Source: a virus
Taxonomy: Duplodnaviria; Caudoviricetes
Reading direction: 5' to 3' (one strand)
IMG/VR virus record: IMGVR_UViG_3300032024_000059
Span: 1-47,426 of that record
DNA: 47,426 nucleotides
In this document: piece by piece, positions 1,725-42,337 of the stretch
How positions within the stretch are numbered: position 1 is the first letter of the stretch
How the letters are laid out: the number at the start of each line of letters is the position of its first letter
Notes under the pieces: model-generated
Seen by the model: only the letters and a program-made list of their open reading frames with translations
Told to the model about the DNA's origin: nothing
Databases searched by the model: none
Made by a program: the position numbers and the translations under genes

Positions 1725-1769
1725 TCCCGAGGATGGGGGTCGAACCCATCCACAACACCACGCCCGGGA
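1725..1769 (-). ncRNA. tRNA-like minihelix element (acceptor-like stem + T arm, no D or anticodon arm)
   Basis: TCCCGGG / GT-rich linker / GATGGG-TTCGACC-CCCATC / CTCGGGA, then C and the primase ATG. Confidence 0.5.
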
Positions 1770-1771
1770 GA

Positions 1772-1800
1772 CGGCCAGCCCTTGTCTAAGGGGCCGGCCG
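1772..1800 (-). other. GC-rich hairpin downstream of the SSB-like gene
   Basis: CGGCCGGCCCCTT-AGAC-AAGGGCTGGCCG; no U-tract. Confidence 0.5.
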
Positions 1801-1821
1801 GAAGACACCTTCTCCCTCTCC

Positions 1822-2850
1822 TTAGAAGGCGTCCTCTTCCGCACCGGCAGCGGGGGCAGCCGGCTTGGCGTTCACCGGAGCGTCATCGCTCCCGGGCTCG
1901 CGGTTGGTGACCTCGCCGTCCACGGTCTCACCATCGGTGGAGGCGGGCGTGGCCACCTCCTCATCGATGTCATCCGTGTTCGGCGTCCACGTCTTGCCTT
2001 CCAGCGACTTGAAGAACCCCTCAGCGGTGATGTACTGGTCACGGTCAACCCAGCCAATCCCCTTGAAGTCGTAGTTCTGGTAGGTGTACTTGCCGTTGGA
2101 CTCCTGCGTGGACTTGAGCTCGAACTTCTGAGCGAACATGTCCGTCTTGAGCTGGCGCGAGGTGGAGAGGAACCGCTTGGCCACCTTGACGTTCACGTGC
2201 TTGTTGCTCCACACGTACGCCCCCATCTCGAACGCCGGCAGGAGGACGATGATGTTGTAGAAGATGGAGCACCCCGGCTTCCCCTCCTCCTCATCGAACT
2301 CCTTGAACACGCACTTGGCGCAGTCGTTGGTGGGCTGGTCACCCTCGTCCTTCCCGATGCCACCCTTGCGAGCGGTGAGGGCATCGTCCGAACGGCAGAG
2401 GACGCCCTCGTCCTTGTCGTAGTCGCCGAAGTACATGCGCGACTTGCCGAGGACCACCGGGATGATGAGGAGGGACTCCCCAGCCTTGCAGAGGATGGTC
2501 TTTGACAGGTTGTCGAAGATGTCCCCCACATCGATGCCGTAGCCGTTGGTCGCCTTCTGGAGGACCTCCGGGGTCTGCGACTGAGCGAGCACGAGCCGGG
2601 GGAGGATGAAGTCCGCAGCATCCATCTTGTCATACCCACGAGGCGCCTGCTCGTTGGTGACCTTCACCAACCACGCGGGCATGGACCCGGTGGGGGCCGG
2701 GGACTGAGCGACGTTCTGCGCCAACGCCGTGGTCTCCGTCACGGGCGTGGGCGCCTGCTGGGGAGGGGCGTTGACGGTCTTCTCCACGGGCTTCGTGGTC
2801 GCCGGGGTGGACTTCGCTGCGGGAGTAACTGCCTTGCTCTTTGGAGCCAT
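1822..2850 (-). CDS. putative ssDNA-binding/recombination protein
   Basis: DFILPRLVLAQSQTPEV motif seen in phage SSB-like proteins, C..CxxC..C cluster, acidic C-terminal tail (EEDAF), position next to primase, AAGGA RBS. Confidence 0.6.
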   Translation of the reverse strand: MAPKSKAVTPAAKSTPATTKPVEKTVNAPPQQAPTPVTETTALAQNVAQSPAPTGSMPAWLVKVTNEQAPRGYDKMDAADFILPRLVLAQSQTPEVLQKATNGYGIDVGDIFDNLSKTILCKAGESLLIIPVVLGKSRMYFGDYDKDEGVLCRSDDALTARKGGIGKDEGDQPTNDCAKCVFKEFDEEEGKPGCSIFYNIIVLLPAFEMGAYVWSNKHVNVKVAKRFLSTSRQLKTDMFAQKFELKSTQESNGKYTYQNYDFKGIGWVDRDQYITAEGFFKSLEGKTWTPNTDDIDEEVATPASTDGETVDGEVTNREPGSDDAPVNAKPAAPAAGAEEDAF

Positions 2851-2883
2851 GGTTGTGTTGTCCTTGTGTCGGTGAGTGCTACG

Positions 2884-3561
2884 TTACGAGCGCCGGATGA
2901 GAGCGCGCTTCTGCTTGAAGTTGGTGAGAGACGCGGGAAGCGCCTTACCCTCCGCAAGCATTTCCTTCACAAGCGATTCAAGCCGCTTGTAGTGAACTGA
3001 CCGGGGCGCGAGCGCCCCCTGCCCGGTCTCATCGAGCCAGACAATGAAGGCGTCCTTGTCCGTGATGTTGGGGCGGTTGAGCTCTTGGATGTACACACTG
3101 CCCACCCCGGTGACTCGGAAGGAGTCCACGCCGTGAGACTCCATCGACTCAGCGAGACTGATGGAGAGCGAATCAATCTGAGTGTTGATTGCCTTAAGCT
3201 GCATCTCCAAGTCCTCCTTCTGGTCTTTGAGGGAGCGCAGGACCTTCGCCTGCTCAGCGTCGCTCGTGTTCTCGCTGAGCACGAGCTCCTTCTCCACCTT
3301 GTCCGGGATGAAGTCCGGGCGAGCGCCGAACCCCTCGGGGGCGTGGATGTCCGCCGGCATCACGGCGGGGTTCTCCAGCTTCTTGATGAGCTTGGACCCC
3401 TTCTTCTTGGCGAGCCGGGTGGGGTTCTCCGGGTCGTGGGCGACGTTGACCGCTTCGTTCTTCCGGTCCTCCTTGCGGGAGAGGTCATCCAGCTTGAGGT
3501 CTCTCTTGGTGAGAGTCGCACCCTCCGTGAGGAAGGCTTCGGCATCGTGCTTGCTTGTCAC
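2884..3561 (-). CDS. coiled-coil phage replication-module protein (Gam-like)
   Basis: coiled coil followed by MESHGVDSFRVTG...DKDAFIVWL...HYKRLESLVKE; GTGA coupling to the upstream gene. Confidence 0.55.
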   Translation of the reverse strand: MTSKHDAEAFLTEGATLTKRDLKLDDLSRKEDRKNEAVNVAHDPENPTRLAKKKGSKLIKKLENPAVMPADIHAPEGFGARPDFIPDKVEKELVLSENTSDAEQAKVLRSLKDQKEDLEMQLKAINTQIDSLSISLAESMESHGVDSFRVTGVGSVYIQELNRPNITDKDAFIVWLDETGQGALAPRSVHYKRLESLVKEMLAEGKALPASLTNFKQKRALIRRS

Positions 3562-3866
3562 TCGGTATCTCCTATGGCGATGGTCCTGACGAAATACTCC
3601 TGCACCTTCGCATCGTACACGAGAAGGCGCAGACGCTTGACATGGTCAGGGATGTACATGCCAGCGAACAACATTGACATCGCTCCACCGGAGAGGAGGA
3701 GGAAGTCCTCCTCCGTGAAGGTGCTGAGCGCGTTGAGCATCTGCTCTGCCACCTTGTCCGGGTTGAACACGTTGAGCTTACCGGAGGAGCACCGCACGAG
3801 CGTCCCGAACTTGGCTGCCATGTCGAAGTTCTGCCCTGCGTCGTTGGTGATGAACACGTTAGACAT
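3558..3866 (-). CDS. conserved small alpha/beta phage protein
   Basis: VFITNDAG..F..A.KFG.L...EDFLLLSGG pattern; overlaps both neighbours. Confidence 0.6.
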   Translation of the reverse strand: MSNVFITNDAGQNFDMAAKFGTLVRCSSGKLNVFNPDKVAEQMLNALSTFTEEDFLLLSGGAMSMLFAGMYIPDHVKRLRLLVYDAKVQEYFVRTIAIGDTE

Positions 3867-4071
3867 GGCGCCTCTTCAGATGAGCAACGTAACGTTCTGC
3901 GAGAGTCTTGGTCTGGAATGGACGAGGGAGGCGCTTCCGCTCCATCTCCCCATCGGCGTTGACCACAGGCGCCTCAATCCAGAAGCGGAACCCGGCAGGT
4001 CCAGCGACCGGCACAATCTTGTACTCCACGTCTGGGCGAGGGGGCTTCTGATACGGGCGTCGCGGAGTCAT
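3859..4071 (-). CDS. hypothetical protein
   Basis: ATGA overlap with the helicase stop; fills the operon. Confidence 0.55.
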   Translation of the reverse strand: MTPRRPYQKPPRPDVEYKIVPVAGPAGFRFWIEAPVVNADGEMERKRLPRPFQTKTLAERYVAHLKRRHV

Positions 4072-5777
4072 TCCGCCTCCAAGAGTTTGCGGGCGTCGCC
4101 CGTCACGATGTCTGCGATGTTCTTCTTTTCACGCAGGGCCTTGAGCACCGTCTTGTCGATGGTCCCACGGCACACGAGGTCAATGTATTCCACGGACCGC
4201 TTCTGTCCGATGCGATGGTGCCTGTCCTCTGACTGGAGGCGGTGCTCCAGACTGAAGCTGTTGGAGTAGTAGATGCACGTGCTGATGGCGGTGAGTGTGA
4301 TGCCGATGCCCGCCGTAGCAATCTGACCGATGAAGACTTGGGCGTCACCGGACTGGATGGAGTCCACCGCCTGCTGTCTCTGTTCCGCCGAGCGGTCGCC
4401 GTAGTAGGTGACCACGTTGAGCTTCTCTTCCTTGAGGGCGTCTTCAATGGCGTGGACCTCCCAGAGGAAGCGACACCACACCGAGGCTTTCTGTCCAGAC
4501 TCGATGGCAGTCTTGACCAGCTCCACGGCGGCATCGAGCTTGACACCATCGATGATGGGGAGCTCAGAGATGGTCTGCCCGTACTCGTCCATCTTCGGCA
4601 GGAACCCGGAGGTGATTTGTTGGAGGCGCATCATCCGGGTGAGGATGATGGGGGAGGCGAGCGTCCCTCCGGCGAAGTCCACAACCGCCTCGTCCTTCAT
4701 CTGCTTGTACAGGATACCCTGCTGGTCTCCCATCTCCAGCTCCACTGTGGTGTACACCTTCTCTGGGAGGTCGAGGCAGTCCGCTTTGAGGATGCGGAAG
4801 GAGTGAGGGGTGATGAGCTTGTTGAGCCTGTCGAGGTTCCGATAGCCAACCACGATGGGCACCGGGATGTTCTGACGCTTGACCGACACAGCGAACTCAG
4901 CCTTGAAGCTGGTGAAGGTCTGATGGCCGAGGATGTTCTTGTCCAAGAAGCGGAACTGCGCCCACGCATCGAGGGGTGAGTTGGCGATGGGCGACCCAGT
5001 CAGGATGATACGTGCCTGTCCAGTCATCCCGAGCTGGTAGGCTTCCTTGCTCGCGGCGCCCTTGTGACTCTTGATACGGGTGGACTCATCACAGACCACC
5101 GCTGCCTTGCGTCGCACACACAGGGTGCGGAACTCCTCGCCGAAGTTGAGGAGCGTCTCATAGTTGGTGATGACAAACTGTGCCGTGGCCTCCGCCTGAG
5201 CGATGAGCGCCCTCTTCTTGGCAGGGGTCCGTCCGGTCACCACCACCACCCGGCGCTTGTCAGGGGCGAGCGGGGAGAAGGTGGCAATCTCACGCTCCCA
5301 GTTGAGGAGGACCGCCTTGGGGCAGAGGATGACTGCCACGTCCACCTTGGAGAGCATCATCCAGTACGACAGCACGTCAATGGTCGCGCGGGTCTTCCCC
5401 GTCCCCATCTCCGCGAGGATGGCGAACTGTCGGCGCTTGCGTCCGAAGTCGAACAGGCGGACTTGGTGTTCATACGGCGGGTAGGGTTCCGTCTTGAACT
5501 GATAGTCCGTGATGACAGGCGCAGGCACAGTCATCTGGGTGGACTGTCGCTGCTTACTCAGCACCTCCTGATACTCAGGCGTGACTGACAGGACTCCCAC
5601 GGACATGAGCGTGCGGTAGATGTCGGTGGCATTCTTGACCGGGAACTTGAACGCCCCGAGCTCGGGCACCCAGACCTTCCCCGGCAGTGAATCAATGAGT
5701 CGCTTGCCCGGCCAAGTGAAGGCGTCCTGTTTGACGTATACGCAGTCAGGTCCGGTGCTGAGTGACAGCTTAATCAT
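4068..5777 (-). CDS. SNF2-family (SF2) helicase/ATPase
   Basis: AEMGTGKT (Walker A), CDES (motif II), LTGSP, QSEDRHHRIGQ (motif VI); probable start ATG 5777. Confidence 0.92.
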   Translation of the reverse strand: MIKLSLSTGPDCVYVKQDAFTWPGKRLIDSLPGKVWVPELGAFKFPVKNATDIYRTLMSVGVLSVTPEYQEVLSKQRQSTQMTVPAPVITDYQFKTEPYPPYEHQVRLFDFGRKRRQFAILAEMGTGKTRATIDVLSYWMMLSKVDVAVILCPKAVLLNWEREIATFSPLAPDKRRVVVVTGRTPAKKRALIAQAEATAQFVITNYETLLNFGEEFRTLCVRRKAAVVCDESTRIKSHKGAASKEAYQLGMTGQARIILTGSPIANSPLDAWAQFRFLDKNILGHQTFTSFKAEFAVSVKRQNIPVPIVVGYRNLDRLNKLITPHSFRILKADCLDLPEKVYTTVELEMGDQQGILYKQMKDEAVVDFAGGTLASPIILTRMMRLQQITSGFLPKMDEYGQTISELPIIDGVKLDAAVELVKTAIESGQKASVWCRFLWEVHAIEDALKEEKLNVVTYYGDRSAEQRQQAVDSIQSGDAQVFIGQIATAGIGITLTAISTCIYYSNSFSLEHRLQSEDRHHRIGQKRSVEYIDLVCRGTIDKTVLKALREKKNIADIVTGDARKLLEAE

Positions 5778-5865
5778 GTACGGCGACCCCTCTCGATATG
5801 CTGTATTGAACTGGGAAGTGACGGTCTCACGTCCCACTTCAGCGTACAATGGATTTTATTTGTCG

Positions 5866-5990
5866 AATAAAATCTCCCTCTACCATCACCTCCGGGTGTG
5901 TCTCGTATGACAAGAAGAAGAAAAGGTCATTCTGGTTTTACGTACACGTGAGGGCTGATTGGTGGTGGTAGAGGGGGGATTTTATCAGAC
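5866..5990. repeat. inverted-repeat element, copy A (about 24-bp arms, about 70-bp spacer)
   Basis: AATAAAATCTCCCTCTACCATCACC (5866-5890) ... GGTGGTGGTAGAGGGGGGATTTTAT (5961-5985); homologous to 28966-29090. Confidence 0.85.
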
Positions 5991-6092
5991 GGTTCCACAA
6001 CAAAGTGCCGATGTCCGGGAGGGTCAGAGGACCACCCAAACATCGGCACGAACGAGGGGAGGTCCCCAGTTCTCCACGAGGGCGACTGGGGG

Positions 6093-6713
6093 TCACCCTC
6101 CCGGACGGTTCGGGTCCTTCTGTCCCGCCACGAAGGCGACCGGGATGGCGACGCTGGCCGTCACGACCATCGCTGCGATGGTGACCACCACCACCTTCCA
6201 GACGGGCAGCCCCACGTTCGGCTCCACTTCCTTGAGCGTGGTCTCGCAGGCGACGATGCGCTTGGCGGTGCTCACGTGCAGGGCGTTGTTGTAGATGAAC
6301 CCGTTGACCGGAGCGGGCTCACCCTTGTGGACCTCCAGCAGGACGGGGGCATCACTGAGGTCCTGCTGAGCGAACGCCGGAGCCGAGAAGAGGCAGGTGG
6401 CGCCGATGAGCATGGCGATGAGGACCGGAGGGACGTTGGTGTTGTTGAGGATGACGGCGCTGGCCTTGTCGATGGAGTCCACCTTCGCTGCCTCGGCGGC
6501 ACCCTTCGCCTTCGCCGCGTCGAGGTAGTTGGACCCGAGCATCATGACCCCGGCGATGCCGGCAATCAGTTCCATCTGGAGGTCCGTCAGGGACACGCCG
6601 AACTTGTCGTGGAGGGCAACGGCGGCGATGGCGGTGAGGCCGGTGACAAACCTCTTGGCGGACCGGGGGTCCTCCGAAAGGCCGAGAGTGAGGAGCTGCG
6701 CGAGTGGATTCAT
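6093..6713 (-). CDS. holin-like multi-TM membrane protein (possible holin fused to a second lysis domain)
   Basis: several hydrophobic segments; directly downstream of the lysin; start MNPLAQLL at ATG 6713. Confidence 0.6.
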   Translation of the reverse strand: MNPLAQLLTLGLSEDPRSAKRFVTGLTAIAAVALHDKFGVSLTDLQMELIAGIAGVMMLGSNYLDAAKAKGAAEAAKVDSIDKASAVILNNTNVPPVLIAMLIGATCLFSAPAFAQQDLSDAPVLLEVHKGEPAPVNGFIYNNALHVSTAKRIVACETTLKEVEPNVGLPVWKVVVVTIAAMVVTASVAIPVAFVAGQKDPNRPGG

Positions 6714-6721
6714 GTTGTCTT

Positions 6722-7249
6722 TCAGCCGAGGAAGGGAACGATGGACCGGAAGCCTCGGAAGTCTGGCCGGTACAGGTGAGTCTGCTTGACCTTGTACATC
6801 GCACGGCGGTTGGAAGCGATTTCGAGCGTGGTTGTCTTGGAGTCCCCGCCCGATGAACCTCCTACCACAACGAGACCATCCACCGTACCAATGACCATCT
6901 CGATGTGCCCGATGTACAGGGCCGCATCTCCGGGGAGCGGGGACCCGATGGGAGGGAGGTCCTGCCAGTAGCGACCCGTGTGCCACGCGTCGAGGTTCGG
7001 ACCACCCGCCCGCTTGATGGCCTCACCGAACGCCCCGGAGCAGTCGAGGGCGAACCCTCCCGGGGAGGGCTCCCACTGGGAGGGCTTCCCACTCCCCGCC
7101 CACTCCGGTCGCCAACCGATGTTGTCAGGACCCTTCGCCCACGCGAGGTAATCGGCAGTCAATCGCTGACCACCCTTCGCCCCCCACAGGTACGGCGTGC
7201 CCTTGAGGTTCAGCGACTCTGCTACGATGCGAGCACGGAGGAGAAGCAT
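6722..7249 (-). CDS. NlpC/P60-family cell wall peptidase (endolysin)
   Basis: GTPYLWGAKG, LDCSG (catalytic Cys), GHIEMV (His). Confidence 0.88.
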   Translation of the reverse strand: MLLLRARIVAESLNLKGTPYLWGAKGGQRLTADYLAWAKGPDNIGWRPEWAGSGKPSQWEPSPGGFALDCSGAFGEAIKRAGGPNLDAWHTGRYWQDLPPIGSPLPGDAALYIGHIEMVIGTVDGLVVVGGSSGGDSKTTTLEIASNRRAMYKVKQTHLYRPDFRGFRSIVPFLG

Positions 7250-7258
7250 GGTTCCCTT

Positions 7259-12413: not shown

Positions 12414-12416
12414 GGG

Positions 12417-18418: not shown

Positions 18419-18966
18419 AGGTCCACCTCCGGGTCTTCGCCCAACGTGGCGCTGCACTCACACGGTTCGCACATCAGTGGCGCGTCCGCTTCCGCACGAG
18501 GGAACACGTTACGGTCGCCAAAGCTGTAGACACCACCATCCCCACGCATGCGGAGGCAGGTCAACCCAGCAGACAACTTCGCTCGTACACACCTACGCGA
18601 AGCTGCACCCGGAAAGACAAACGGCACACCAGCATCCCACCTACTTGTGACACCCGGGAAAGACGCAGCGGGGTCGATGGTACATTCGCGCCAGTCTTTG
18701 ACCGTCACCAGTCCACGAAGCCCGTCCATCTCTGGCGGGATGTCAAACGAGAGTCCACCATCCGAGAGCGCACGACGTACTACGCCAAAACGGATGAGCT
18801 CATTACGCTTGAGGTCGAGTCCCGCCTCACGCGCTACAGCGAGTCCACGGTCCGTGAGGCGGACTGGACATGTGGCCACACGGTTGGCGGTATCATTGGA
18901 CGTGCCAACGAAGATGGCCACCGTGGTTCCACCGGCCAAAACAACCGCAAGGAAGAAGCGACGCAT
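18415..18966 (-). CDS. Cys-rich protein with N-terminal signal/anchor
   Basis: MRRFFLAVVLAGG N-terminus; several Cys; DGG/DAG motifs. Confidence 0.65.
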   Translation of the reverse strand: MRRFFLAVVLAGGTTVAIFVGTSNDTANRVATCPVRLTDRGLAVAREAGLDLKRNELIRFGVVRRALSDGGLSFDIPPEMDGLRGLVTVKDWRECTIDPAASFPGVTSRWDAGVPFVFPGAASRRCVRAKLSAGLTCLRMRGDGGVYSFGDRNVFPRAEADAPLMCEPCECSATLGEDPEVDL

Positions 18967-20834
18967 TATGGCACCGTGCTTGGACAGCGAAGGTACAAAT
19001 CGTCGAGGCAGATGTCTGTGATGATGGAGTCCGTCTCGTTTCCCGGGGCGTTGTAGGAGCCCACATAGAGCCGTCCGGTCCCACCTGCGGTGGTGATGGT
19101 GGCACCCACCCCCACCCCATTACAGACTGGAGCGTTGTTGTTCATGGACATGCAGAGTTCTGGAGTCGGTGTACGGTACTGCGAAAGGCGGGTTGGCACA
19201 TTCGCCGTCAGGAGATTGCCCGTCAGAACCACTTGGTCCAACGTAGATGCCACGTACGTGAAGGCGTAAGGCTGCATCCCCGGAAGCACGTACGACTCCC
19301 ATATGTCAGTGCTCGCAACGTGGGCAGTAAGCAGCGCCGCTGAGGGTGAGTGTCCACCCGGAGCGGTCACAGTCAGTGCCAGTGAGCCAAAACTGAGTCC
19401 GTTGGGGAGGGCGAAGTAGGGGGTCGATTCAAGCGCACGGTCGAGAGGGACGGTTGTGACTGGGGCGTAGCTCGTCGGGTACCTGTCAACCGTGTTAGCG
19501 TAAGACTCCCCCTGAACCCCCCACACCAACAGGTCGGCGGCAACGCGAGCCACACCACCGTTCTGATTGCTATTGTTGCCAAGCTTACAGTACCGCGTGA
19601 CAGACGTGGCACCTGCCGCACTCTTCGAGCATCTGCTGTAACCACCATCTCCCGTGAAGGCACAATTTCCACAGGTCCACGCAGCACCCGTGTACGCGCA
19701 GATATCAGTTGTCCCATCTTGTGCTACGCCCCCATCCATTGGGCGTTGTCCAGTGACGAAGGCAGAGCAGCTCACAGCATCGGTGGAAAGCGCAGCATTC
19801 CACGTCTGAAAGATGTCTGCGTAGCCAATCCCAGAGGTGGCGCCGAAGTGGATGGCCTCTGCAGTCTGCGAACCATTGGGAGCACCACCATCGTTCACCC
19901 ATACACCGACTGGAGTGATGCCTGCGCCCGCTTCCTTGGTCCACACCACGTTGTCAATGGCCTCAGTCTGAAGGCAGTAGCTCCTTCGCAGAGATTCGAC
20001 AAGGGGGCCCCGCTTGCCATTGAGTGAGTCCCACTCGATGCGTGGTTGATTGTTCGGCATCAGGACCAAGTCCCCGGGTGAAATGCCACTCGTCGCGAAA
20101 CCACCGGAGGGGGTCTTCGTGCAGTAGGCGACCCCCGCGCGGGTGAACACAAACGCCTCGCCCCTCGCCCCCTTGGGTGCGAACCCCATCGCCGCCGTAG
20201 TGGTCCTCACGTACTCCGCTCGTGTGAGACCCGCGTTACACTGCATCCCCCACAAAAGGACATCAATGGCAGGGTAGGACCCCTCGGCGACGGCACCACT
20301 TGGTCCAATGTACCAATTTTCACCACCCGCACCTGCCGTAGTCGCGCTCACTGAGCACAGTGTCCAGTCAGCAGCGGTGAACGAGCACACGGCCTTGGTG
20401 TTCGGGAACCCGGTGAGGAGGTACATCGGGATGGAGCCACTCCCGCTCGTGCCCTTGAACCATGCACTGCAGGTGGCGGGACCACCGAGCCATCCCGTCG
20501 TGATACCTTGGAGGATGTGAGAGTATTGCGCGGGCGCGGTGGTGGCGGGGATTTCAAGCCTATCCGCCGTCATGTCTCCGATTGGGCTGAGAGCGTAATT
20601 GGCCGTTCGGGTGGTGTTGCGCGGCGCCGAGTCGGAGTTGTTGGTCCAAGTCGTGGTGATGTCTTCGCTCTGAAGAATCCAATTCGGCAAGGGACACGCC
20701 TCCCCTGCCCCAGCACCACTGGCTGTGAACGCAGCGAAGTCTGGGAGTGCCTTGACCTGCAGGGGTGGAGGGAAGTCCACGAACGCCCCAGCCACGAGCG
20801 AGAACAGGGCAACCGTGAAGAGCAAGCGACGCAT
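18966..20834 (-). CDS. large signal-peptide protein with two tandem carbohydrate-binding-like domains and a LamG-like C-terminus
   Basis: GGAGG RBS + ATG 20834 (MRRLLFTVALFSLVAGA); repeat N.ILQSE..T.W...A...TA..L...LWG.Q....TSY..TT occurs twice; LYVGS near the C-terminus. Confidence 0.7.
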   Translation of the reverse strand: MRRLLFTVALFSLVAGAFVDFPPPLQVKALPDFAAFTASGAGAGEACPLPNWILQSEDITTTWTNNSDSAPRNTTRTANYALSPIGDMTADRLEIPATTAPAQYSHILQGITTGWLGGPATCSAWFKGTSGSGSIPMYLLTGFPNTKAVCSFTAADWTLCSVSATTAGAGGENWYIGPSGAVAEGSYPAIDVLLWGMQCNAGLTRAEYVRTTTAAMGFAPKGARGEAFVFTRAGVAYCTKTPSGGFATSGISPGDLVLMPNNQPRIEWDSLNGKRGPLVESLRRSYCLQTEAIDNVVWTKEAGAGITPVGVWVNDGGAPNGSQTAEAIHFGATSGIGYADIFQTWNAALSTDAVSCSAFVTGQRPMDGGVAQDGTTDICAYTGAAWTCGNCAFTGDGGYSRCSKSAAGATSVTRYCKLGNNSNQNGGVARVAADLLVWGVQGESYANTVDRYPTSYAPVTTVPLDRALESTPYFALPNGLSFGSLALTVTAPGGHSPSAALLTAHVASTDIWESYVLPGMQPYAFTYVASTLDQVVLTGNLLTANVPTRLSQYRTPTPELCMSMNNNAPVCNGVGVGATITTAGGTGRLYVGSYNAPGNETDSIITDICLDDLYLRCPSTVP

Positions 20835-20849: not shown

Positions 20850-20896
20850 GTGACGGCGGGGATTCGAACCCCTGCAGCCCAACAACACACCATCAC
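20850..20896 (-). ncRNA. tRNA-like minihelix element (7-bp acceptor-like stem + T arm)
   Basis: GTGATGG / TGTGTTGTTGGGCTGC / AGGGG-TTCGAAT-CCCCG / CCGTCAC; ends 4 nt before the GGAGG RBS. Confidence 0.55.
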
Positions 20897-20899
20897 CGT

Positions 20900-21049
20900 T
20901 TAACGCCCGGCTGGCAGAGTCCGTGCTGAAGTATCGCGGGTCACCCCTCCCGCGAGTATCGGCAGAGGGACTCTCAGTACCGCCCTTCGATGAGCACCGT
21001 GTGGAGGGACGTGGTCCCGGCGTCGTTGCCGAGCGAATCGGGTCTTCAT
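20900..21049 (-). CDS. possible small basic protein (49 aa) or structured RNA
   Basis: AAGGAG RBS + ATG; MKTRFARQRRRDH...; the region also has several stems. Confidence 0.35.
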   Translation of the reverse strand: MKTRFARQRRRDHVPPHGAHRRAVLRVPLPILAGGVTRDTSARTLPAGR

Positions 21050-21081
21050 TTGCGTGCTCCTTGGTTGTGCTGTGTTCGGTG

Positions 21082-21462
21082 TTACGGGACGCCCTTGAAG
21101 GCGACACACGTGCAGGTGCCAGTCACGCAGAGCACGTCCACGTAATCGTGGCTGTTGTTGAGCTGACGGTAGAACTTCTCCCCCAGCGTGAAGTTGACAC
21201 GGTCACACGTGGTTGACGTGCAGGCGATGGAGACGGTCCCGGTCCCCACGTAAGCGTCACCACCTGTGCAGGTGACCTTGAGGTAGATGCCCTTCTCCAC
21301 GAGGTTGAGGCGGGTGTGGGTCGGCGACGTGGAACTGATGGTCCCCTTGACCACGTAGTCCCCATCCCACCTGCCCGCCCACGCGAGGCTCGCCGCGGTG
21401 AGACAGAGGAGCGCCCCGATGAAGCAGGCGAGCTCGATGACTGCCCAAATTTTCTTGTTCAT
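21082..21462 (-). CDS. small Cys-containing protein with signal peptide
   Basis: GGAGGAG RBS; MNKKIWAVIELACFIGALLCLTAASLAWA signal-like N-terminus. Confidence 0.75.
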   Translation of the reverse strand: MNKKIWAVIELACFIGALLCLTAASLAWAGRWDGDYVVKGTISSTSPTHTRLNLVEKGIYLKVTCTGGDAYVGTGTVSIACTSTTCDRVNFTLGEKFYRQLNNSHDYVDVLCVTGTCTCVAFKGVP

Positions 21463-21477: not shown

Positions 21478-21540
21478 AGATGGGTGACGGCTACGAAACC
21501 GTCCAGCGAGGCTCGTGAGGCCGCGCTGCCCTGACCCACC
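21478..21540 (-). ncRNA. D-armless tRNA-like element (CT-CAC-GA loop)
   Basis: GGTGGGT / CAGGG / CAGCGCGGC-CTCACGA-GCCTCGCTG / GACGG-TTTCGTAG-CCGTC / ACCCATC T. Confidence 0.55.
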
Positions 21541-32214: not shown

Positions 32215-32570
32215 CGGCGAGCTCGTTGGATGTTCTGCTGGATTCGGGTGTACACATCAGAGCCGTGCTTGGGGTCGTACAGGACAGGAGCAGGCGAGGA
32301 GTAGGGGACGGTCTCTCGGCGGATGCGAGCGTGGAGGTCTGCGGGCCACTTGTTGAGCACCTCCAAGAGCGTCCACAACACTCCACGCCTCACCTCAACC
32401 CCCGCCTCCTCCCGAGCCTCATCCCTCACGTATCGCGCGTAGCAGAGCTCACAGAGGGTGTAGGGGCGCTTCCCCTCACGACCCTTGGCGACCCAATGCC
32501 AGCGCGGCTCGCGGTCAGCGAGGTCACGCTGGCAATCAGAGCACCAAGTGAGGTGAGGGTATCCAATCAC
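32211..32570 (-). CDS. hypothetical Zn-finger protein
   Basis: CSDC...LCELC; coupled overlaps. Confidence 0.55.
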   Translation of the reverse strand: MIGYPHLTWCSDCQRDLADREPRWHWVAKGREGKRPYTLCELCYARYVRDEAREEAGVEVRRGVLWTLLEVLNKWPADLHARIRRETVPYSSPAPVLYDPKHGSDVYTRIQQNIQRARR

Positions 32571-33169: not shown

Positions 33170-33176
33170 GGTGGTG

Positions 33177-35466: not shown

Positions 35467-35711
35467 AGTGGCCACCCGTTGACCGCGAAGTACGCCACGG
35501 CAGCGGCGAGCATCGCGGCACCAAGTCCGAGGAACGCCCCCGTGATGACGCCGCTCTTGTAGGAGTCCCACCGGCGACCCGTGAGGTCATTCACGATGGC
35601 GAAGTGGAACTCCTTGGTGACCATCCCGCTACTGTGGGAGCAGACATAGACGTGGTGCATGTCCACGTCCATCTTCCCACAGTACGCACAGCACGTTCGG
35701 AGCGAGGGCAT
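35463..35711 (-). CDS. small membrane protein
   Basis: CAYC N-terminus, C-terminal TM segment; TGATG overlap with the clamp gene. Confidence 0.5.
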   Translation of the reverse strand: MPSLRTCCAYCGKMDVDMHHVYVCSHSSGMVTKEFHFAIVNDLTGRRWDSYKSGVITGAFLGLGAAMLAAAVAYFAVNGWPL

Positions 35712-36736
35712 CACGGACTCAGGGGGGCAAGGAGGGCTTCGTAGCCTGCGGTCTCCCCGCAGAAGTAGAAGGGAATCTGAGCGCCGTTCCCGGGCGCCCA
35801 ACTCTCGGCGTACTGGATGAGTTGGTTGGCGAGCTCAGCGTTGATGCCCTTGTAGGGGAACGAGGTGCCCTCTGGAGCGAGCAACTCATAGCCCTCGGCC
35901 GTGGAGGACTTGAGCGTCAACTCCAGCCCAAGCGCCTTACAGGACATCCAGACCTGTTTCAGCGGCTCACCCGTGAGCAGGCTCAAACGAGTGAAGGCGG
36001 AGACCATCCCGTCCGGGATGGGAGTGACCACCCGTCCCTCAGCGACCATGCCGAAGAACTTGTCAAACTGAGCCTGCGGGTACTCGGCGCCGTCACGGAG
36101 ACGGGCGAGGAAGGTGAGGTTGACGTAGTCGAACACCGCGAGCGAGTCCCGGACCGCCACGCGCTTGGGGTTGCCGAGGCGGATGAGTTCCCCCACCGCC
36201 TTCTTGGGGAGCATGAAGGGGGCGACGTTGAGACCGGGGACAGTGCAGCGGACCACCTGCTTCCCGTTCCCGCCGTACACCTTGTCCCCCGAGACGAAGA
36301 GGGAGGAGAGCGAGCGGTTGTTCTCATCGTCGCTGACGCCGATGAGGCACCGCTCCACCGCCTCCTTGAACCCGGCCGGGACCTCCCTCCAGTCCTCCGG
36401 CTTGACGGAGACCTTGGGCTTGGGGAACTCCTCGTTGAGCTGGGCGATGTGGGACGTGTGGCGTCCACACTTGATGGTGATGCGCTCGCCCACGGTCAGC
36501 TCAATCTCCTCCTCCTCCAACTGCTGGAGCAACTGGAGGAAGGTGGACGCCTTCACGTTGAAGGACTTCTCCACGGTGGTGGTCATCTTCGCGCGGATGC
36601 CAATCTCAGAGTCGTAGCCGAGCACCGAGTCACCAGAGACGAGGACGTGCGTGAGGATGGGCACGAACCCCTTGGCAGCGACGGCGCCCTTGACTTGTTC
36701 GAGGGCCTGCACCAGCTCTGTGCGGGAGACCTTCAT
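35711..36736 (-). CDS. dnaN: DNA polymerase III beta sliding clamp-like protein
   Basis: VSRTELVQAL..V..AV......PILTHVL...YDSEIGI; EEFP; LIARL..G.YP-type motif; 341 aa. Confidence 0.82.
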   Translation of the reverse strand: MKVSRTELVQALEQVKGAVAAKGFVPILTHVLVSGDSVLGYDSEIGIRAKMTTTVEKSFNVKASTFLQLLQQLEEEEIELTVGERITIKCGRHTSHIAQLNEEFPKPKVSVKPEDWREVPAGFKEAVERCLIGVSDDENNRSLSSLFVSGDKVYGGNGKQVVRCTVPGLNVAPFMLPKKAVGELIRLGNPKRVAVRDSLAVFDYVNLTFLARLRDGAEYPQAQFDKFFGMVAEGRVVTPIPDGMVSAFTRLSLLTGEPLKQVWMSCKALGLELTLKSSTAEGYELLAPEGTSFPYKGINAELANQLIQYAESWAPGNGAQIPFYFCGETAGYEALLAPLSP

Positions 36737-37026
36737 CGCTTGGACTCGGCGAGGACCTTCTCCACGAACTCCGTGGCCTCGGTGTTGAGGCGGGAGAGAA
36801 GCTCGGCAGCGTCATCCTCGGGGAGTGCGGTGGCGTAGTCCGTCACCACCTTGAAGCACTCGATGAACCCCGCGAAGAACGCCTTGCGCATCTCATCCTG
36901 CTGGAGGGGAGACGCGTTGAGGGGGAGGACCGCCTGAGCGAAGAGCGCCCAGAGGAGGTTGATGCTCATGTCCTTGGACTGGACGAGGTCAGGGTAGTTC
37001 AGCGGGCGGGGAGTGGTGGTGCTCAT
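36733..37026 (-). CDS. conserved hypothetical phage protein
   Basis: W......VLP..A...Q..EMRKAFFAG pattern; ATGA overlaps. Confidence 0.6.
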   Translation of the reverse strand: MSTTTPRPLNYPDLVQSKDMSINLLWALFAQAVLPLNASPLQQDEMRKAFFAGFIECFKVVTDYATALPEDDAAELLSRLNTEATEFVEKVLAESKR

Positions 37027-38027
37027 TCTTTCCTCTTCGGTGGTGTGTAGCTGGGGAACGGGACCCCATCGATGATGTCCATGACGGCCTTCCACATCGG
37101 CGTGGGCTTCACCTTCTGTGCGTGATACGTGAACATGCGGTTGAGACGCTTGGTGTACAAGAACTCCTCAATGGCCATGTCCAACATGCCAGCGAGGTAC
37201 ATCGTCATCTGTGGCCACGGCCACGAGGGGTTGGGTCCGAAGGTCCTCCCGTAGGACGCCTCCTCGTACGCCATGGTGAAGAGGGACGCCTCCGGGTTCG
37301 ACCACTCACGGAGCTTGAGCACCCGGGCGTACTCATCGTAGGTGACCGCACAGAACTCACGGCGTGACCAGTGCTGATTGATGAGCTCCTCCATGGTGAA
37401 CCCGTATCGCTCCACCTCTTTGCGAATGGCCGCTTGATTGGCGGGGGTCTCTGTGTTGTAGTGCTGCCCCGCGTCTGCCGTCCGGGGGGACTTCCCCGAG
37501 ACCTGCACCCGCCACGGCTTCCCGTCCCGGGTGTACACGATGGACCCGAAGGCGCCCACTTGGAGCCACGCAGACGAGTCCACCGAGTACCACGGGTAGC
37601 GGGACATCAGCTCGAACGTGGTCAGGCCGAAGCCGTGGACCTTGATGACCGGCTCTCCCTCAGCGTTGGTGAGGTAGTTGTCAAAGAGCTCATCGAGCCA
37701 CGGGAAGAGGTCGCGCTTGTTGATGGGCACCATCCCACCGAGCGCGATTTGGTCATGCCCCTTGAGGAGGTACTTGATGAGCCACTTGGGGTCCTCCCCG
37801 TAGTGGAAGCAGGGGACGGGAGTGAGGCCAGCATCCTCCATCCGGTTCTGCGCCTCCCACGTCCCCTCAGCAGACCCGATGACATCGAGGACGGCGTAGT
37901 GGTCAATGTAGCGAGCGTGCTTCTTGAGCCACTCACAGTAGTGGGGGAGGGACTGCTGCTCCCCCAGTGTGAAGGCTGAGAAAGCACCCGAGTCCATCCA
38001 CACCATCTGACGTCGTTCGGTGGTCAC
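37023..38027 (-). CDS. dpdA: DpdA / TGT-like DNA base-exchange transglycosylase
   Basis: MDSGAFS, LDVI, VPCFH.GE, ALGG, VHGFG, YPWYSVDSSAW; adjacent to queC/folE/queE/queD. Confidence 0.85.
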   Translation of the reverse strand: MTTERRQMVWMDSGAFSAFTLGEQQSLPHYCEWLKKHARYIDHYAVLDVIGSAEGTWEAQNRMEDAGLTPVPCFHYGEDPKWLIKYLLKGHDQIALGGMVPINKRDLFPWLDELFDNYLTNAEGEPVIKVHGFGLTTFELMSRYPWYSVDSSAWLQVGAFGSIVYTRDGKPWRVQVSGKSPRTADAGQHYNTETPANQAAIRKEVERYGFTMEELINQHWSRREFCAVTYDEYARVLKLREWSNPEASLFTMAYEEASYGRTFGPNPSWPWPQMTMYLAGMLDMAIEEFLYTKRLNRMFTYHAQKVKPTPMWKAVMDIIDGVPFPSYTPPKRKE

Positions 38028-38031
38028 CCGT

Positions 38032-38844
38032 TCACCCCGGCCCGCAACACTCATTGCACCCGACGCCGTTGCACAGGCAGCGGGAGTGGGTGGTGGTTGG
38101 TGCCTTCACCGGGGGCAGGTCATCGAGGTCATCCACGTTCGGCTCAGGCATGTACGCCGTGGGGTCCTTCACGTGGGCGAGGGCGAACGCCTCCTTGCGC
38201 TCCACGCACGTCCCACACTTCCCACAGTGGAGGACGTGGCGGCCGAAGTCCGAGAAGGGCTGGGGGTCGTAGCAGGACCACGTCTCCTCAAAGGGAGTCC
38301 CGAGCCGGGAACCGATGGAGCAGATTTGTGCCTTGGTCATGTCGATGAACGGAGCAGCCAACCGCACGTGCGTCCAGTCAGCGAGGATGATGGCCTTGGC
38401 GAGCGCCTCAGCGAAGGCGGGCCGGCAGTCAGGGTAGATGGCGTGGTCACCACCGTGGGCACCGTAGGCCAGCGTCTCCGCCTTGATGCTCATCGCGTGA
38501 CCAGCGGCGATGGAGAGCATGACCATGTTGCGGTTAGGCACCACGGTCTTCTTCATCGTCTCATCCGTGTAGTGGCCGTGCGGGACCGGGATGGACGAGT
38601 CCGTCTGGGAGGACCCTCCCAGCACCTTCCCGAGGGAGGAGAGGTTGACCTCCGTGTGAGAGGCCGACTTCCCGAAGTGGGCGACCGCACGGGCCGATTC
38701 GAGCTCTCGGCGGTGACGCTGCCCGTAGTCGAACGAGATGGTGTGGACCTCGTACCCAAGCGCCTTGTAGAAGGTGAGCAGGACTGCCGAGTCCATCCCA
38801 CCGCTCAGGACCACCACGACCTTGGAGGGCTCAGAAGTCGGCAT
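38032..38844 (-). CDS. queC: 7-cyano-7-deazaguanine synthase
   Basis: LSGGMDS, FDYGQRH, VPNRN, YPDCR, TWSCY, CGKCGTC..R. Confidence 0.95.
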   Translation of the reverse strand: MPTSEPSKVVVVLSGGMDSAVLLTFYKALGYEVHTISFDYGQRHRRELESARAVAHFGKSASHTEVNLSSLGKVLGGSSQTDSSIPVPHGHYTDETMKKTVVPNRNMVMLSIAAGHAMSIKAETLAYGAHGGDHAIYPDCRPAFAEALAKAIILADWTHVRLAAPFIDMTKAQICSIGSRLGTPFEETWSCYDPQPFSDFGRHVLHCGKCGTCVERKEAFALAHVKDPTAYMPEPNVDDLDDLPPVKAPTTTHSRCLCNGVGCNECCGPG

Positions 38845-39049
38845 TGGCGTCCGCCGGGGTGTTCACGTCATCGGGGCAGTCCGTCAGGAGCATCAGCGTC
38901 TGCTCAGTCAGGGCGATGACCTCGCCGAGCTTGCGGTAGCGGTTGAACTGCTGCTCCCTCCCGCTCGTCTTGAGGGGAGGCATCGTCTCCAAGGCGTGGG
39001 CTTGGTCGGCCTGCACCGAGCGGAGGAACGAGGTGAGGTCTCTTTTCAT
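38831..39049 (-). CDS. small hypothetical protein inside the que cluster
   Basis: ATG 39049 (MKRDLTSFL...), overlaps the queC start. Confidence 0.5.
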   Translation of the reverse strand: MKRDLTSFLRSVQADQAHALETMPPLKTSGREQQFNRYRKLGEVIALTEQTLMLLTDCPDDVNTPADANADF

Positions 39050-39068
39050 CTCTGCGGTCTTCACGGTG

Positions 39069-39839
39069 CTACTCCTTGGTGACGTGAGCCATGAACTCGG
39101 CTCGGGTGGACGGTTGGGACATGAAGCGACCGGACAGTTGCGGGGTGACCATGAAGGCGTCATCCTGTCGCACACCACGGGACATCATGCAGAAGTGTTG
39201 GGCCTTCATGACGCAGGCCACGTCATCGGTCTCCAGCAGTTCACCGAGGGCCTTGACCACCTGCGACGTGAGGCGCTCCTGATTCTGGAGACGGCGAGCG
39301 TACATCTCCACGAGGCGAGGGAGCTTGGAGAGACCGATGAGCTTTCCATTGGGGATGTAGGCGACCCACGCCTTACCGAAGAACGGGAGGAGGTGGTGCT
39401 CGCAGGTCGAGTAGAACTGGACCGGACCCACGCACACCATGCCCGTGAAGTGCTCATCATTGGCGAACACGGTGAGGAGCTTCTTGGGGTCCGCCGTGTA
39501 CCCGGAGGTAATCTCCCGCCACGCCTTCACCACCCGGCGAGGCGTGTCAAGCAGTCCTTCACGGTCCGGGTTCTCCCCCAGCGCCCGGAGCATGATTTTG
39601 ATTCCCTTCTTGCGTTCCTCATCGAGGATGTGCTCTGCTTCGACCTTTTCCACGCGAGCCATCACGGCCTCCACGAGGCCAGCGGGGTTCTCGATGAAGC
39701 GACCACCCTTCCCGTCACACTGACGGCAGAGGGCAGTCTCGTACTCGTTGTTGGTGCCGACGATGCCCCCGCCCTTGCACTCGGAGCACTTCACCCACTT
39801 GCGGTCATCGTCTCCTGTGAGGTGGACGTGTCCGGTCAT
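39069..39839 (-). CDS. folE: GTP cyclohydrolase I with N-terminal CxxCxGxG zinc finger
   Basis: [50 protein letters not shown]. Confidence 0.95.
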
Positions 39840-40585
39840 GGGTTGCCTGCCATCTTGTGGGTCTGGAGGGAGAGGGAGTACCGAGCGGGGTGAGCCATGA
39901 TGAGCTTGGACGCACAGAGCGTCCACTTGGGGGAGAGTGACTCCGGCTGGAGGAAGTTGCGACACCCGGAGACCCAGAGCTGGTCAGGGTCCTCGTTGTA
40001 CATCTTCATGAACGCAGCGTTGACCACCCACTTGACCTCATCAGCGCACATGAGGAGTGGGAGGGGGACAAGCCTGAGCGGGACCTTGGGAGACACACAG
40101 ACGTGGTCCAGCTCAGACATCCACGGAGACCACACGGTCCCCCCAGTCTCGATGCAGACCCGGAACCCGGAGGACTGGAGGACGGCGATGAGCGGCCCAC
40201 AGTTCTGGAGGCCCGGTTCCCCTCCGGTGAGGATGACCAGCGGGTTGAGTTCCCGGAGGAGCTTGGGCATCCACTCCGGGGAGACAGCCGGCGAGCCGGG
40301 TTCACCGAGCGAGCTTGAGGGGATGACCGGGACCATCGACCGGACCCGATTGGCGATGTCCTCCACGGGTCGCTTGGTGAACGCCTCGAACTCAGTGTCA
40401 CAGAACTTGCAGGCGAGGTTGCACTTGGCCAGACGGATGAACACCGCCGCCCTCCCAGTGTTCTCCCCCTCGCCCTGCAGCGAGTAGAAGACCTCATTGA
40501 TGAGGAGGGTGACCCCGGTGGGGTCGAACTGCTGGGGGTCGTACTTCCCCGCAACAACATCGGGACGGAACTCAGGGTCACTCAT
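39836..40585 (-). CDS. queE: 7-carboxy-7-deazaguanine synthase (radical SAM)
   Basis: [32 protein letters not shown]. Confidence 0.95.
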
Positions 40586-41025
40586 GGAAGCCTCACGTAG
40601 TCTGCGTAGGAGGTGGGGGTCTCGTACAGGCGCGCTCGCACGACTGACACCACGCCATCCGTCTCGTGGTGGAGCATCTTGTGGGCCTGCTCAGCGAAGA
40701 ACCGGACGAGGTTCTCTGCCGTGGTGGGCTCATGGAGCCAGAACACCTTGAGCTTGAGCTTGTCGGCGAGGTCTGCGATGGGGTCAGCGTCCGGCCCGGC
40801 CTCGTGGGCGAGGAGTCCGTGGTCAATGACCCGGTCAATCCACCCGCCCACCACGGTCTTGATGACGCCGAAGTCCACGACCCTGCCCACGTCATCGAGC
40901 TTGTAGTTGGGACGCACGGTCAACTCCAGCACATAGCGGTGACCGTGGAGGTTCTTGCACTTCCCCTCGTGGTTGAGCAGCCGATGGGCAGCGTCAAACT
41001 CCAGCCTCTTCGTGATGGTCAGCAA
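40582..41025 (-). CDS. queD: 6-carboxy-5,6,7,8-tetrahydropterin synthase
   Basis: FDAAHRL, CKNLHGHRY, VDFG, DH, PTTAENL, ETPTS; probable TTG start at 41025. Confidence 0.93.
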   Translation of the reverse strand: MLTITKRLEFDAAHRLLNHEGKCKNLHGHRYVLELTVRPNYKLDDVGRVVDFGVIKTVVGGWIDRVIDHGLLAHEAGPDADPIADLADKLKLKVFWLHEPTTAENLVRFFAEQAHKMLHHETDGVVSVVRARLYETPTSYADYVRLP

Positions 41026-41084
41026 TTGATGTCCCTCTCCCTGTATGTGAGGACTGAACCCTAATTGGTGTTCGGGTCCTTGTA

Positions 41085-41131
41085 CACAAAACAAAACGGC
41101 GACCCCGCGTGTGCTCTGCGGGGTCGCCGTT
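41085..41131 (-). terminator. intrinsic terminator after the H1-like gene
   Basis: 13-bp stem ACGGCGACCCCGC/GCGGGGTCGCCGT followed on the minus strand by TTTGTTTTGT. Confidence 0.8.
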
Positions 41132-41148
41132 CCTAGAAATCGAGCGGA

Positions 41149-42192
41149 TTACTTCTTCTTGGTGGTCGCCGCGGCGGGGGCCTTGGAGACGGTGGCACCG
41201 GGGACGTTGACCGTCACGCCCTTCGCCTTGAGGTCGGCAGCCGCCTTCTCCGCGGCAGCCTTCGCCTTCTCGGCGTCCTCCTTCGCCTTCGCCTCGGCCT
41301 TCTCGGCGGTCGCCTTGAGCTTCTCCGCCTTCTTCGCGGCCTTCTTCGCGGCCTTCTCCGTCTCCTTGACGGCCTTCGCCGCCTCGCGGAGCTTGTCGGC
41401 CTCGGCCTTCTTGAGCGCGGCCTCCGGGCTCAGGATGCGCACCTTGGAGTGACCCACGATGTGGATGCCGTAGCGGCCCTTGTCATCGCGGCCGATGGTG
41501 AAGGAGCGGTCCTTCGGCATCCGGTTGAGCTGGGTGTTGATGGTGACCATCATGTCATCCGGCTTGCGGTCCGGGTGAGCCTTGACGAGGCGGGCGAGGA
41601 TTTCCTCCTTGGTCGCCCCGCCCTTGAGGTCGAACGCGCGGTAGATGTTCAGCAGGACGGAGTTGTCCCGGAACTCACCGTGGGCGGTGGTGATGACCTT
41701 GTGCTTCGGCGCCTTCGCCGGGGTCGTGGTGGTGGTCGTTGCGGGGGGAGCATCGGGGGTCTTCGACATGGCGGCTTCTTCCTCGGGTGTGATGTCCACG
41801 ACGAGCATGGACTTGGGGGACAGACCTGCGCGGGAGACCATCTCCCGAATGAGCTTGCCCTTCGCAGCGGTGTAGTCGTTGAGGCAGTTCTTGTCAACCA
41901 CGTACTTCACACCTTCCACGGCGGGCGGGTTGGCGGGACCGTACTTGGCGATGAGGCCGGGGAGGATGGTGGTCATGGCCACCTTCTGCCCTTCCAACTG
42001 GAACTGCTTGAACTGCGCCTGAGTCGCTCGGGGCAGACCGTCAGCGTCCACCTTGACGAACTTGTCCGTGACGGAGGGGAGGTTGGTCACCACCGTCACG
42101 CCCGGAGCGGGGTGAGCGATGGTCATCTTGGCAACCGGGGCGGTGGACTTCTTGGAGGTGCCAGGGGTCTTCTTCGTGGTCTTGGTCGGCAT
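41149..42192 (-). CDS. basic DNA-binding protein with winged-helix-like core and histone-H1-like Ala/Lys tail
   Basis: CAGGAG RBS + ATG 42192; ATKEEILARL...M..TINTQL core; KAAKKAAKKAEK tail. Confidence 0.75.
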   Translation of the reverse strand: MPTKTTKKTPGTSKKSTAPVAKMTIAHPAPGVTVVTNLPSVTDKFVKVDADGLPRATQAQFKQFQLEGQKVAMTTILPGLIAKYGPANPPAVEGVKYVVDKNCLNDYTAAKGKLIREMVSRAGLSPKSMLVVDITPEEEAAMSKTPDAPPATTTTTTPAKAPKHKVITTAHGEFRDNSVLLNIYRAFDLKGGATKEEILARLVKAHPDRKPDDMMVTINTQLNRMPKDRSFTIGRDDKGRYGIHIVGHSKVRILSPEAALKKAEADKLREAAKAVKETEKAAKKAAKKAEKLKATAEKAEAKAKEDAEKAKAAAEKAAADLKAKGVTVNVPGATVSKAPAAATTKKK

Positions 42193-42229
42193 GGTGTTTC
42201 TCCTGTATCGTGGTTGGTGCAGCGACTCG

Positions 42230-42264
42230 AACTTACTGCGGTGGAGCGGGATGTCAAGTCCCGC
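42230..42264 (-). promoter_or_regulatory. sigma70-like promoter with -35 inside an inverted repeat
   Basis: TTGACA-16 nt-TAAGTT; the -35 is flanked by GCGGGA/TCCCGC. Confidence 0.5.
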
Positions 42265-42267
42265 GAT

Positions 42268-42337
42268 TGGACCCAGAGGGACTCGAACCCTCTTGCCGTG
42301 GATTCTAGGTTCCCGGCAAGTCACCCGAACTGAGCCC
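42268..42337 (-). ncRNA. D-armless tRNA-like / tmRNA-TLD-like RNA with G3-U70 and A73
   Basis: GGGCTCA / GTTCGGGTGAC / TTGCCGGGA-ACCTAGAA-TCCACGGCAA / GAGGG-TTCGAGT-CCCTC / TGGGTCC A; no encoded CCA. Confidence 0.65.

Follow-up and report, generated by a model that had tools for sequence, protein, structure and literature searches.

The window analyzed here, to which all coordinates refer, is the entire 47,426-nucleotide (nt) virus record IMGVR_UViG_3300032024_000059 (Caudoviricetes), which has a terminal repeat of 54 bases and a G+C content of about 62%. Four of its gene junctions carry elements (E1 to E4) that resemble the top half of a transfer RNA (tRNA), i.e., an acceptor-like stem joined to a T arm; three of these are clear and one, E3, is weaker. 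The original prediction had placed four such stretches between genes on the minus strand, which is their sense strand, and had noted that none of them encodes CCA; both statements hold for E1–E4. The minus strand also carries nearly all genes of the virus, including primase, Pam3 gp32-34-like, SNF2 helicase, capsid, terminase, polymerase A and beta clamp genes. The listed sequencing runs that contain the window, none of them from RNA, are labeled cave/biofilm metagenome, which may be its source; assembled contigs from two possible-source runs have the same letters over E1–E4, and four DNA runs show no variants there.

Four elements at gene junctions

E1 (minus strand, 1725..1769) consists of a 7-base-pair (bp) acceptor-like stem, a 12-nt linker and a 6-bp T stem with the loop TTCGACC. 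An alternative 12-bp register (6+6 bp) pairs U1769, as N-1, with A1725, as N73, and leaves one C before the AUG. Upstream lies a Pam3 gp34-like gene (minus strand, 1822..2850) whose stop is 52 nt before E1; a purine stretch right after this stop codon can alternatively pair with the 5′ strand of E1, and a GC-rich hairpin of 9 bp with no U tract (minus strand, 1773..1799) ends 3 nt 5′ of the element. Downstream, the ATG of the primase gene (minus strand, 230..1723) abuts the E1 discriminator base 1724 and has no Shine-Dalgarno sequence (SD), as against an SD at the six other starts inspected; most close primase homologues begin at the same MKY-type position, which confirms the start. E1 is predicted to bury this start region, with a mean unpaired value of 0.32 versus 0.85 for the freed AUG.

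E2 (minus strand, 20850..20896) has a 7-bp acceptor, a 16-nt linker and a T stem of 4 bp plus an A.G mismatch with the loop TTCGAAT. It begins 3 nt past the stop of a 49-codon open reading frame (ORF; 21049-20900), and the SD GGAGG of a gene for a 622-amino-acid (aa) protein (minus strand, 18966..20834) follows 3 nt after its discriminator. With the upstream frame open, E2 was also considered as coding sequence, a reading rejected because homologues of the 622-aa protein align only beyond its ATG. E3 (minus strand, 21479..21540, discriminator 21478) combines a 7-bp acceptor, a 5-nt linker and an 8-bp hairpin with a canonical-looking 7-nt anticodon loop (CAC), joined through a 0-nt junction to a 5-bp stem. 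It follows a GC hairpin that, like the one ahead of E1, has no U tract, and an SD begins 1 nt past its discriminator. A 126-aa gene of unassigned function (minus strand, 21082..21462) lies between E3 and E2. Next to it, within 20900-21081 (minus strand), the 49-codon ORF has a good SD and shares sequence with a second frame that resembles the end of a gene; this region is possibly a deletion remnant between the gene downstream of E3 and E2.

E4 (minus strand, 42268..42337; fold 42337-42269, discriminator 42268) shares the three-way layout of E3, with a 7-bp acceptor, an 11-nt linker, a 9-bp hairpin with an 8-nt loop, a 0-nt junction and a 5-bp T stem with the loop TTCGAGT. It starts 6 nt past the upstream stop and is followed by a hairpin and a 75-nt leader. 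This hairpin (minus strand, 42246..42264; 6 bp) lies 3 nt past E4 and holds TTGACA in its loop, with a weak -10 at 16 nt beyond; the promoter scan did not call it. A further TTCGA loop with a short stem occurs at about 42225-42240, and the hairpin at 42246-42264 has a CGCGGG-type stem similar to that of a minus-strand hairpin upstream of E2 (about 20925-20955).

The geometry that had been described thus stands: E1 and E2 replace the D and anticodon arms by linkers, E3 and E4 lack the D arm and have a lower hairpin, and E1–E3 end 0–4 nt from an SD or start codon.

The elements against chance expectation

A strict pattern (a TTCRA T loop, a stem of at least 4 bp and a 7-bp acceptor) matches exactly E1, E2 and E4 in the window, all intergenic and on the sense strand, whereas 300 whole-window shuffles gave a mean of 0.26 matches and three or more in 1/300. 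Within 12 hand-picked sense-strand spacers (1830 nt) the pattern again has three matches; of 3000 shuffles of this set, 28 had one match and none had more. Folds of this strict pattern do not, then, arise equally often in shuffled intergenic sequence. The published T-arm motif GGTTCRANYCC occurs four times against 0.66 expected, a count that 0/100 shuffles reach, the occurrences being E1, E2, E4 and one antisense copy within the polymerase gene that has a stem of only 3 bp. The relaxed pattern that captures E3 was fitted after the fact; it has four matches in the window against a mean of 1.4 per shuffled genome (60 shuffles) and appears in 104/3000 shuffles of the spacer set, but in only 1/3000 shuffles of E3's own spacer. 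Because this pattern is common genome-wide yet rare in that spacer, we count E3 as probably a genuine element, though not an established one. Chance is excluded for E1, E2 and E4, and less firmly for E3.

The earlier observation of four elements with a common acceptor-like stem and TTCG-type T loop therefore holds well above chance for E1, E2 and E4, and E3 departs from it in its loop. Measured against a 7-bp acceptor, 5-bp T stem and 7-nt T loop, E4 is complete, E1 has 7 and 6 bp or 6+6 bp, E2 has one mismatch and E3 differs in the loop; GGTTCRANYCC within a tRNA-like fold is found in E1, E2 and E4, and not in E3. None of the four is a canonical cloverleaf (D arm, 5-bp anticodon stem, 7-nt loop, U8), and a D stem is present in none. 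As anticipated, ARAGORN called no canonical tRNA in the window (0 tRNA and 0 transfer-messenger RNA (tmRNA) genes), and Rfam gave nothing relevant there: three unrelated chance matches, and no tRNA, tmRNA or mt-tmRNA, C4 or Y RNA match. The word "family" does not extend to sequence, as none of the 20 largest repeat families of the window joins the four elements.

E4 carries the top half of a tRNA-Ala

A BLAST search of the E4 spacer against INPHARED returned 27/27 identity to the tRNA-Ala of Virus Rctr197k (E 2e-4), and 14 of the 20 matches listed carry a tRNA-Ala annotation. Taken together, the acceptor strands, T arm and discriminator of E4 are identical at 32/32 positions to the Rctr197k tRNA-Ala(cgc) and at 31/32 to two IMG/VR tRNA-Ala(tgc) genes. 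They include G1-C72, G2-C71, G3.U70 and A73; G3.U70 is described as the main alanine determinant, with G2-C71 and A73 also listed (PMC9976931). The 22-nt 3′ end has seven exact matches in IMG/VR, where ARAGORN calls four tRNA-Ala, one tRNA-Ile and leaves two uncalled, and an exact search of IMG/VR with the 5′ part gave 0 matches. By contrast, the 38-nt middle of E4 aligns with the 40-nt middle of the tRNA no better than shuffles do (581/2000 score as high). Given 32/32 identity on one side and an unrelated middle on the other, the top half appears to have been kept and the bottom replaced: E4 is best read as a tRNA-Ala top half joined to a lower half of foreign origin, a pattern that points to selection on the top half, or to a very recent swap, rather than to uniform decay.

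No comparable origin emerged for the other elements. The best isotype match for E1 (26/32) is no better than the nearest-neighbor median of 25/32 among 117 tRNA top halves, and that for E2 (23/32) lies below it, a Ser-like BLAST match having E=5; neither assignment was retained. Exact searches of IMG/VR with the 3′ halves of E1 and E2 gave 0 matches each, and homology searches with E3 returned coding chance matches only. A candidate family of 53 IMG/VR loci sharing an E1/E2 linker motif was discarded, because ordinary tRNAs and tmRNAs make up most of the matches listed.

An analogous slot in Microbacterium cluster EA phages

A weak T-arm match (E 4) in the unannotated spacer before the DNA polymerase I gene of Microbacterium phage Peppino provided the entry point to a second set of elements. 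We compared 18 EA phages, 11 chosen for diversity from 125 BLAST records (60 listed) and 7 from other subclusters. The T-arm motif is present in the polymerase I-upstream spacers of all 18, with an acceptor of at least 6 bp found by scan in 17 and, by eye, with one mismatch in the 18th. ARAGORN calls only two of the 18, both as Phe(AAA), and at six EA loci Rfam gave only sub-threshold tRNA, tmRNA and mascRNA scores, none at gathering level. The lower halves are of several unrelated types, which depositors have labeled Ala, Phe, Ser, Undet or not at all; published accounts give EA1 phages 0 tRNAs and other subclusters a single tRNA-Ala (PMC7302621), and include Undet and Phe calls (PMC9583789, PMC10927691). 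Encoded CCA is present in some EA elements and absent from others, and so is G3.U70, which is kept in EA4, EA5 and EA6 and missing in EA1, EA2 and EA3.

The majority EA1 type is represented by 9 sequences, 7 of them distinct; pairing holds in 99.5% of cells, and both sides have changed at 8 of 27 pairs, among them 2/6 acceptor pairs and 2/5 T-stem pairs. None of 500 shuffles matches this and slid structures pair at 30–38%, controls that flatter the structure, since it was derived from the same related sequences. In this type the loop of a 4-bp D-like hairpin can also kiss the loop of a covarying 7-bp hairpin. At gene junctions, then, EA phages appear to retain the acceptor/T-arm unit and to let anticodon, identity and CCA vary, and their annotated "tRNA-Ala/Phe/Ser/Undet" genes are probably not decoders. 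Because the stems covary while anticodon, G3.U70 and CCA vary, enzymes that read structure, such as ribonuclease (RNase) P and RNase Z, seem better candidates for the selecting agent than decoding or charging.

Elements as proposed cutting marks in messenger RNA

The original prediction proposed a tRNA-mimic system by which host enzymes cut phage messages. With moderate confidence, we read E1–E4, by analogy, as cis-acting marks at which host RNase P, alone or together with RNase Z, would cut. The tRNA-Ala top half in E4 and the EA slot support and sharpen the proposal, whereas its premise of one family gives way to four elements of differing sequence, one of them with a divergent loop. For hairpins made of acceptor, T stem and T loop, Escherichia coli RNase P is described as cutting at the canonical position, which it gauges as 12 bp from the T loop; phage M3 and C4 RNAs as well as messenger RNAs (mRNAs) are among its further substrates (PMC11143913). 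RNase Z, in the account of PMC7479834, cuts after the discriminator of CCA-less precursors and contacts the T arm and acceptor, not the D arm or anticodon.

On this proposal, RNase P would bind the T loop and cut 12 bp away, at the 5′ end of each element, so that a hairpin (E1, E3) or a stop codon (E2, E4) would lie directly ahead of the new 3′ end of the upstream message, and at E2 and E3 the message downstream would carry a paired tRNA-like cap at its 5′ end, in front of the SD. Such caps and 3′ ends could set the relative stability of replication and virion mRNAs. A 3′ cut of the RNase Z type at CCA-less E1 would yield a leaderless primase mRNA, beginning at the AUG or one base before it, and excised mini-RNAs would be by-products. 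The most likely origin of the elements would be the capture of tRNA genes, followed by deletion (E1, E2) or replacement (E4, E3) of the lower half. The suggestion that they tune translation fits E1, where the start is buried, and does not extend to E2 and E3, where the SD is not part of the element and is predicted to be equally accessible before and after a cut. We give only a modest chance to a stronger form of the proposal, in which RNase P and RNase Z would cut all four junctions, primase would be made only from the leaderless mRNA that the RNase Z cut creates, and the piece excised at E4 would be a free mini-RNA that lacks an anticodon, can be charged with alanine and has its own role.

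Several points weigh against the elements being cutting marks. Contact with RCCA matters for bacterial RNase P, as described in PMC11143913, and none of the elements encodes CCA; the same source has T-loop replacement lowering and shifting cleavage, and the T-like loop of E3 is non-canonical, 8 nt long (TTTCGTAG), and does not contain the T-arm motif. E1 has no G+1, and its second register puts a C right after the discriminator, where cytidines suppress RNase Z (PMC7479834); action of the host RNase Z is itself presumed. For E1, E2 and E4 the tRNA-like fold is not the minimum-energy fold (z -0.5 to -2.0), and the E1 acceptor is predicted to be out-competed by upstream pairing. In context, acceptor pairing probabilities are 0.0–0.01 for E1, 0.06–0.32 for E2 and 0.35–0.93 for E4, but little weight attaches to these unfavorable thermodynamics: of 71 real tRNAs put through the same test, 21% likewise fall below 0.1.

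Relatives of the phage add further points on that side. It belongs to a clade of ~45-kb phages (capsid identity 57–78% in 17 of 36 other matches) that are known as proteins only, as are primase homologues at 46–79% identity; searches at the DNA level yielded, among the matches listed, distant loci only. Among more distant relatives, an element precedes the primase at 0/15 loci (27–38% identity), and GGTTCGANNCC is found in 0/5 capsid-relative records (34–49%, all fragments or incomplete). The EA evidence, for its part, bears on the present phage by analogy, not homology. The N-terminal stretches of 83 primases include one that can encode the T-arm motif, in a homologue of 46% identity with an N-terminal extension, where the encodable T arm would end ~2 nt before the start of its subgroup; at 0.0015 per residue about one such case is expected over all 83, and this is therefore only a hint of an element there.

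Alternative readings

The excised mini-RNAs might themselves be the point, E4 gaining CCA and being alanylated in the manner of the tRNA-like domain of tmRNA, and E3 or E4 acting in trans, either as decoys for defenses that target tRNA or as ligands of EF-Tu or the ribosome. The alanine determinants of E4 fit such a role, and so do its 11-nt linker, where GG and a terminal GAC recall the stemless D loops of tmRNAs at the loci compared, one IMG/VR match to its 3′ end that in our own reading resembles a tmRNA end, the anticodon loop of E3, and the G3.U70 kept in EA4, EA5 and EA6. However, alanine identity is absent from E1–E3 and an anticodon from E1 and E2. E4 has neither the 3-nt variable loop nor the G4-C69 of tmRNA, with no match to the Rfam tmRNA and mt-tmRNA models, and placement in single copy at junctions fits a cis role; charging is also not an invariant property, because the EA1, EA2 and EA3 elements lack G3.U70. 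We consider this reading unlikely. Decoys against anticodon nucleases, one of the uses that had been suggested, are a poor fit as well, given that only E3 has a canonical anticodon loop. Equally unlikely, in our estimate, are inert remnants of captured tRNA genes, i.e., deletion or recombination scars with no current function. E4 is demonstrably tRNA-derived, no sequence is common to the four, distant relatives have no elements, the folding z-scores are modest and the T loop of E3 is degenerate, all of which is in keeping with scars. Decay should nonetheless spread over the whole gene, yet the top half of E4 is intact at 32/32 positions while its middle is a new 9-bp hairpin, both acceptor strands stay paired across a large deletion in E1 and E2, and EA phages keep the acceptor/T-arm unit by compensatory change.

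Operators that mimic tRNA exist, that of thrS being an example, and the elements could likewise be cis structures that are never cut, their T-loop elbows binding a phage or host protein (as operator, antiterminator or exonuclease block) and so controlling translation or mRNA stability. The primase start is buried in E1, whose competing fold could be switched by a terminating ribosome, and the absence of CCA from all elements is in keeping with structures that are not processed. Yet a 12-bp acceptor/T stack with a free 5′ leader and 3′ trailer is the shape of a known RNase P substrate, and no candidate RNA-binding partner was identified in the phage, which makes uncut structures, to our mind, rather improbable. 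Last, the exact match of the 27 nt at the 3′ end of E4 to a tRNA-Ala end recalls attP-like DNA sites that copy tRNA 3′ ends; but E4 also retains the 5′ acceptor strand, the four elements differ in sequence, and no integrase family is found among the 78 ORF translations scanned. Together with chance hairpins, which the shuffles exclude for E1, E2 and E4 and less so for E3, this possibility is largely excluded and we regard it as highly improbable.

Other features of the window

A cluster of dpdA/TGT-like, queC, folE, queE and queD genes (minus strand, 37023-41094), as expected for 7-deazaguanine DNA modification, and a C5 methyltransferase (44743-45627) are present. The primase (minus strand, 230-1723) and an MCM-like helicase (minus strand, 45877-47352) are separate genes across the circular junction; both match parts of phrog_18685, and many relatives are proteins of ~950 aa, likely fused forms. 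In a small block of plus-strand genes, a 44-nt direct repeat (43259-43302 and 43454-43497; 93% identity) ends at ATG starts and is a possible start-associated or promoter element. Promoter and terminator scans gave nothing above shuffles. The only clear intrinsic-terminator-like structure, seen by eye, is a long GC hairpin with a U-rich tail (minus strand, 41085-41135) located 3′ of a 347-aa gene, which the terminator scan missed because of its 9-nt loop. The 622-aa protein (18966-20834) has a partial homologue (44% over 18% of the query) named from an Archangium metagenome-assembled genome, a weak hint of a myxobacterial host.

Implications

The presence of tRNA genes in phages has long called for an explanation, the usual answer being codon supply or defense evasion. 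The elements described here keep only the part that tRNA-processing enzymes read, which suggests a third use, marking the places where mRNA is to be cut. Programs that search for tRNAs overlook such elements or misname them, and under the stronger form of the proposal many single, oddly annotated phage "tRNAs" (Undet, Phe-AAA) would be cutting marks and not decoders. With the EA Microbacterium phages, which grow in culture on a harmless laboratory host, the idea is open to direct test, and expression work would gain a useful part in a 45-nt cassette producing either a defined mRNA end or a leaderless mRNA.

Comparison with known systems

We found no description in the literature, subscription journals and bioRxiv supplements aside, of tRNA top halves dispersed in phage protein operons, nor any of the EA slot as a processing element. 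The EA slot resembles the present elements in joining a tRNA top half to lower halves that can be exchanged, and in following a GC hairpin without a U tract at a replication-gene junction; it differs in belonging to an unrelated phage group, with one element per genome placed 45–110 nt from the start codon. Host RNase P is described as cutting phage M3 RNA, the C4 antisense RNA of P1 and P7 and the gene 32 mRNA of T4 (PMC11143913), but these are single regulatory RNAs and not several tRNA-derived top halves at coding-gene junctions. The synthetic RNase P substrates AT1 and pMini, presented in the same source, have the same 12-bp stack capped by a T loop, yet they are engineered and end in RCCA, whereas the E elements are natural and CCA-less and hold a linker or foreign hairpin between their stems.

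Likeness to tmRNA and mt-tmRNA is confined to E4, with its alanine identity, stemless D-loop-like linker and lower helix, and E4 has no mRNA-like domain, tag, variable-loop GAC or CCA, nor an ARAGORN or Rfam match. YrlA Y RNAs have a tRNA-mimic domain with T arm and acceptor, one of them being described as cut by RNase P and gaining CCA (PMC4201824); they keep the D arm, whereas here there is no Ro60-binding module or Rfam match, and no Ro60/TROVE family among the ORF translations scanned. The t-elements of plant mitochondria share non-canonical tRNA-like folds, GGTTCRANYCC and the lack of an encoded CCA, are dispersed at mRNA ends and have been proposed as cis signals for RNase P and RNase Z (PMC1920247). 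Here, unlike there, a bacterial virus and bacterial enzymes would be involved, and E1 and E2 are only 45–47 nt long with no lower arm; t-elements are reported to coincide with mRNA ends (PMC1920247), whereas the geometry to SD and start codon is here taken from sequence alone. By the features tested, E1–E4 are not canonical tRNAs, tmRNAs, YrlA RNAs or attP sites, and, by analogy, they would work like t-elements.

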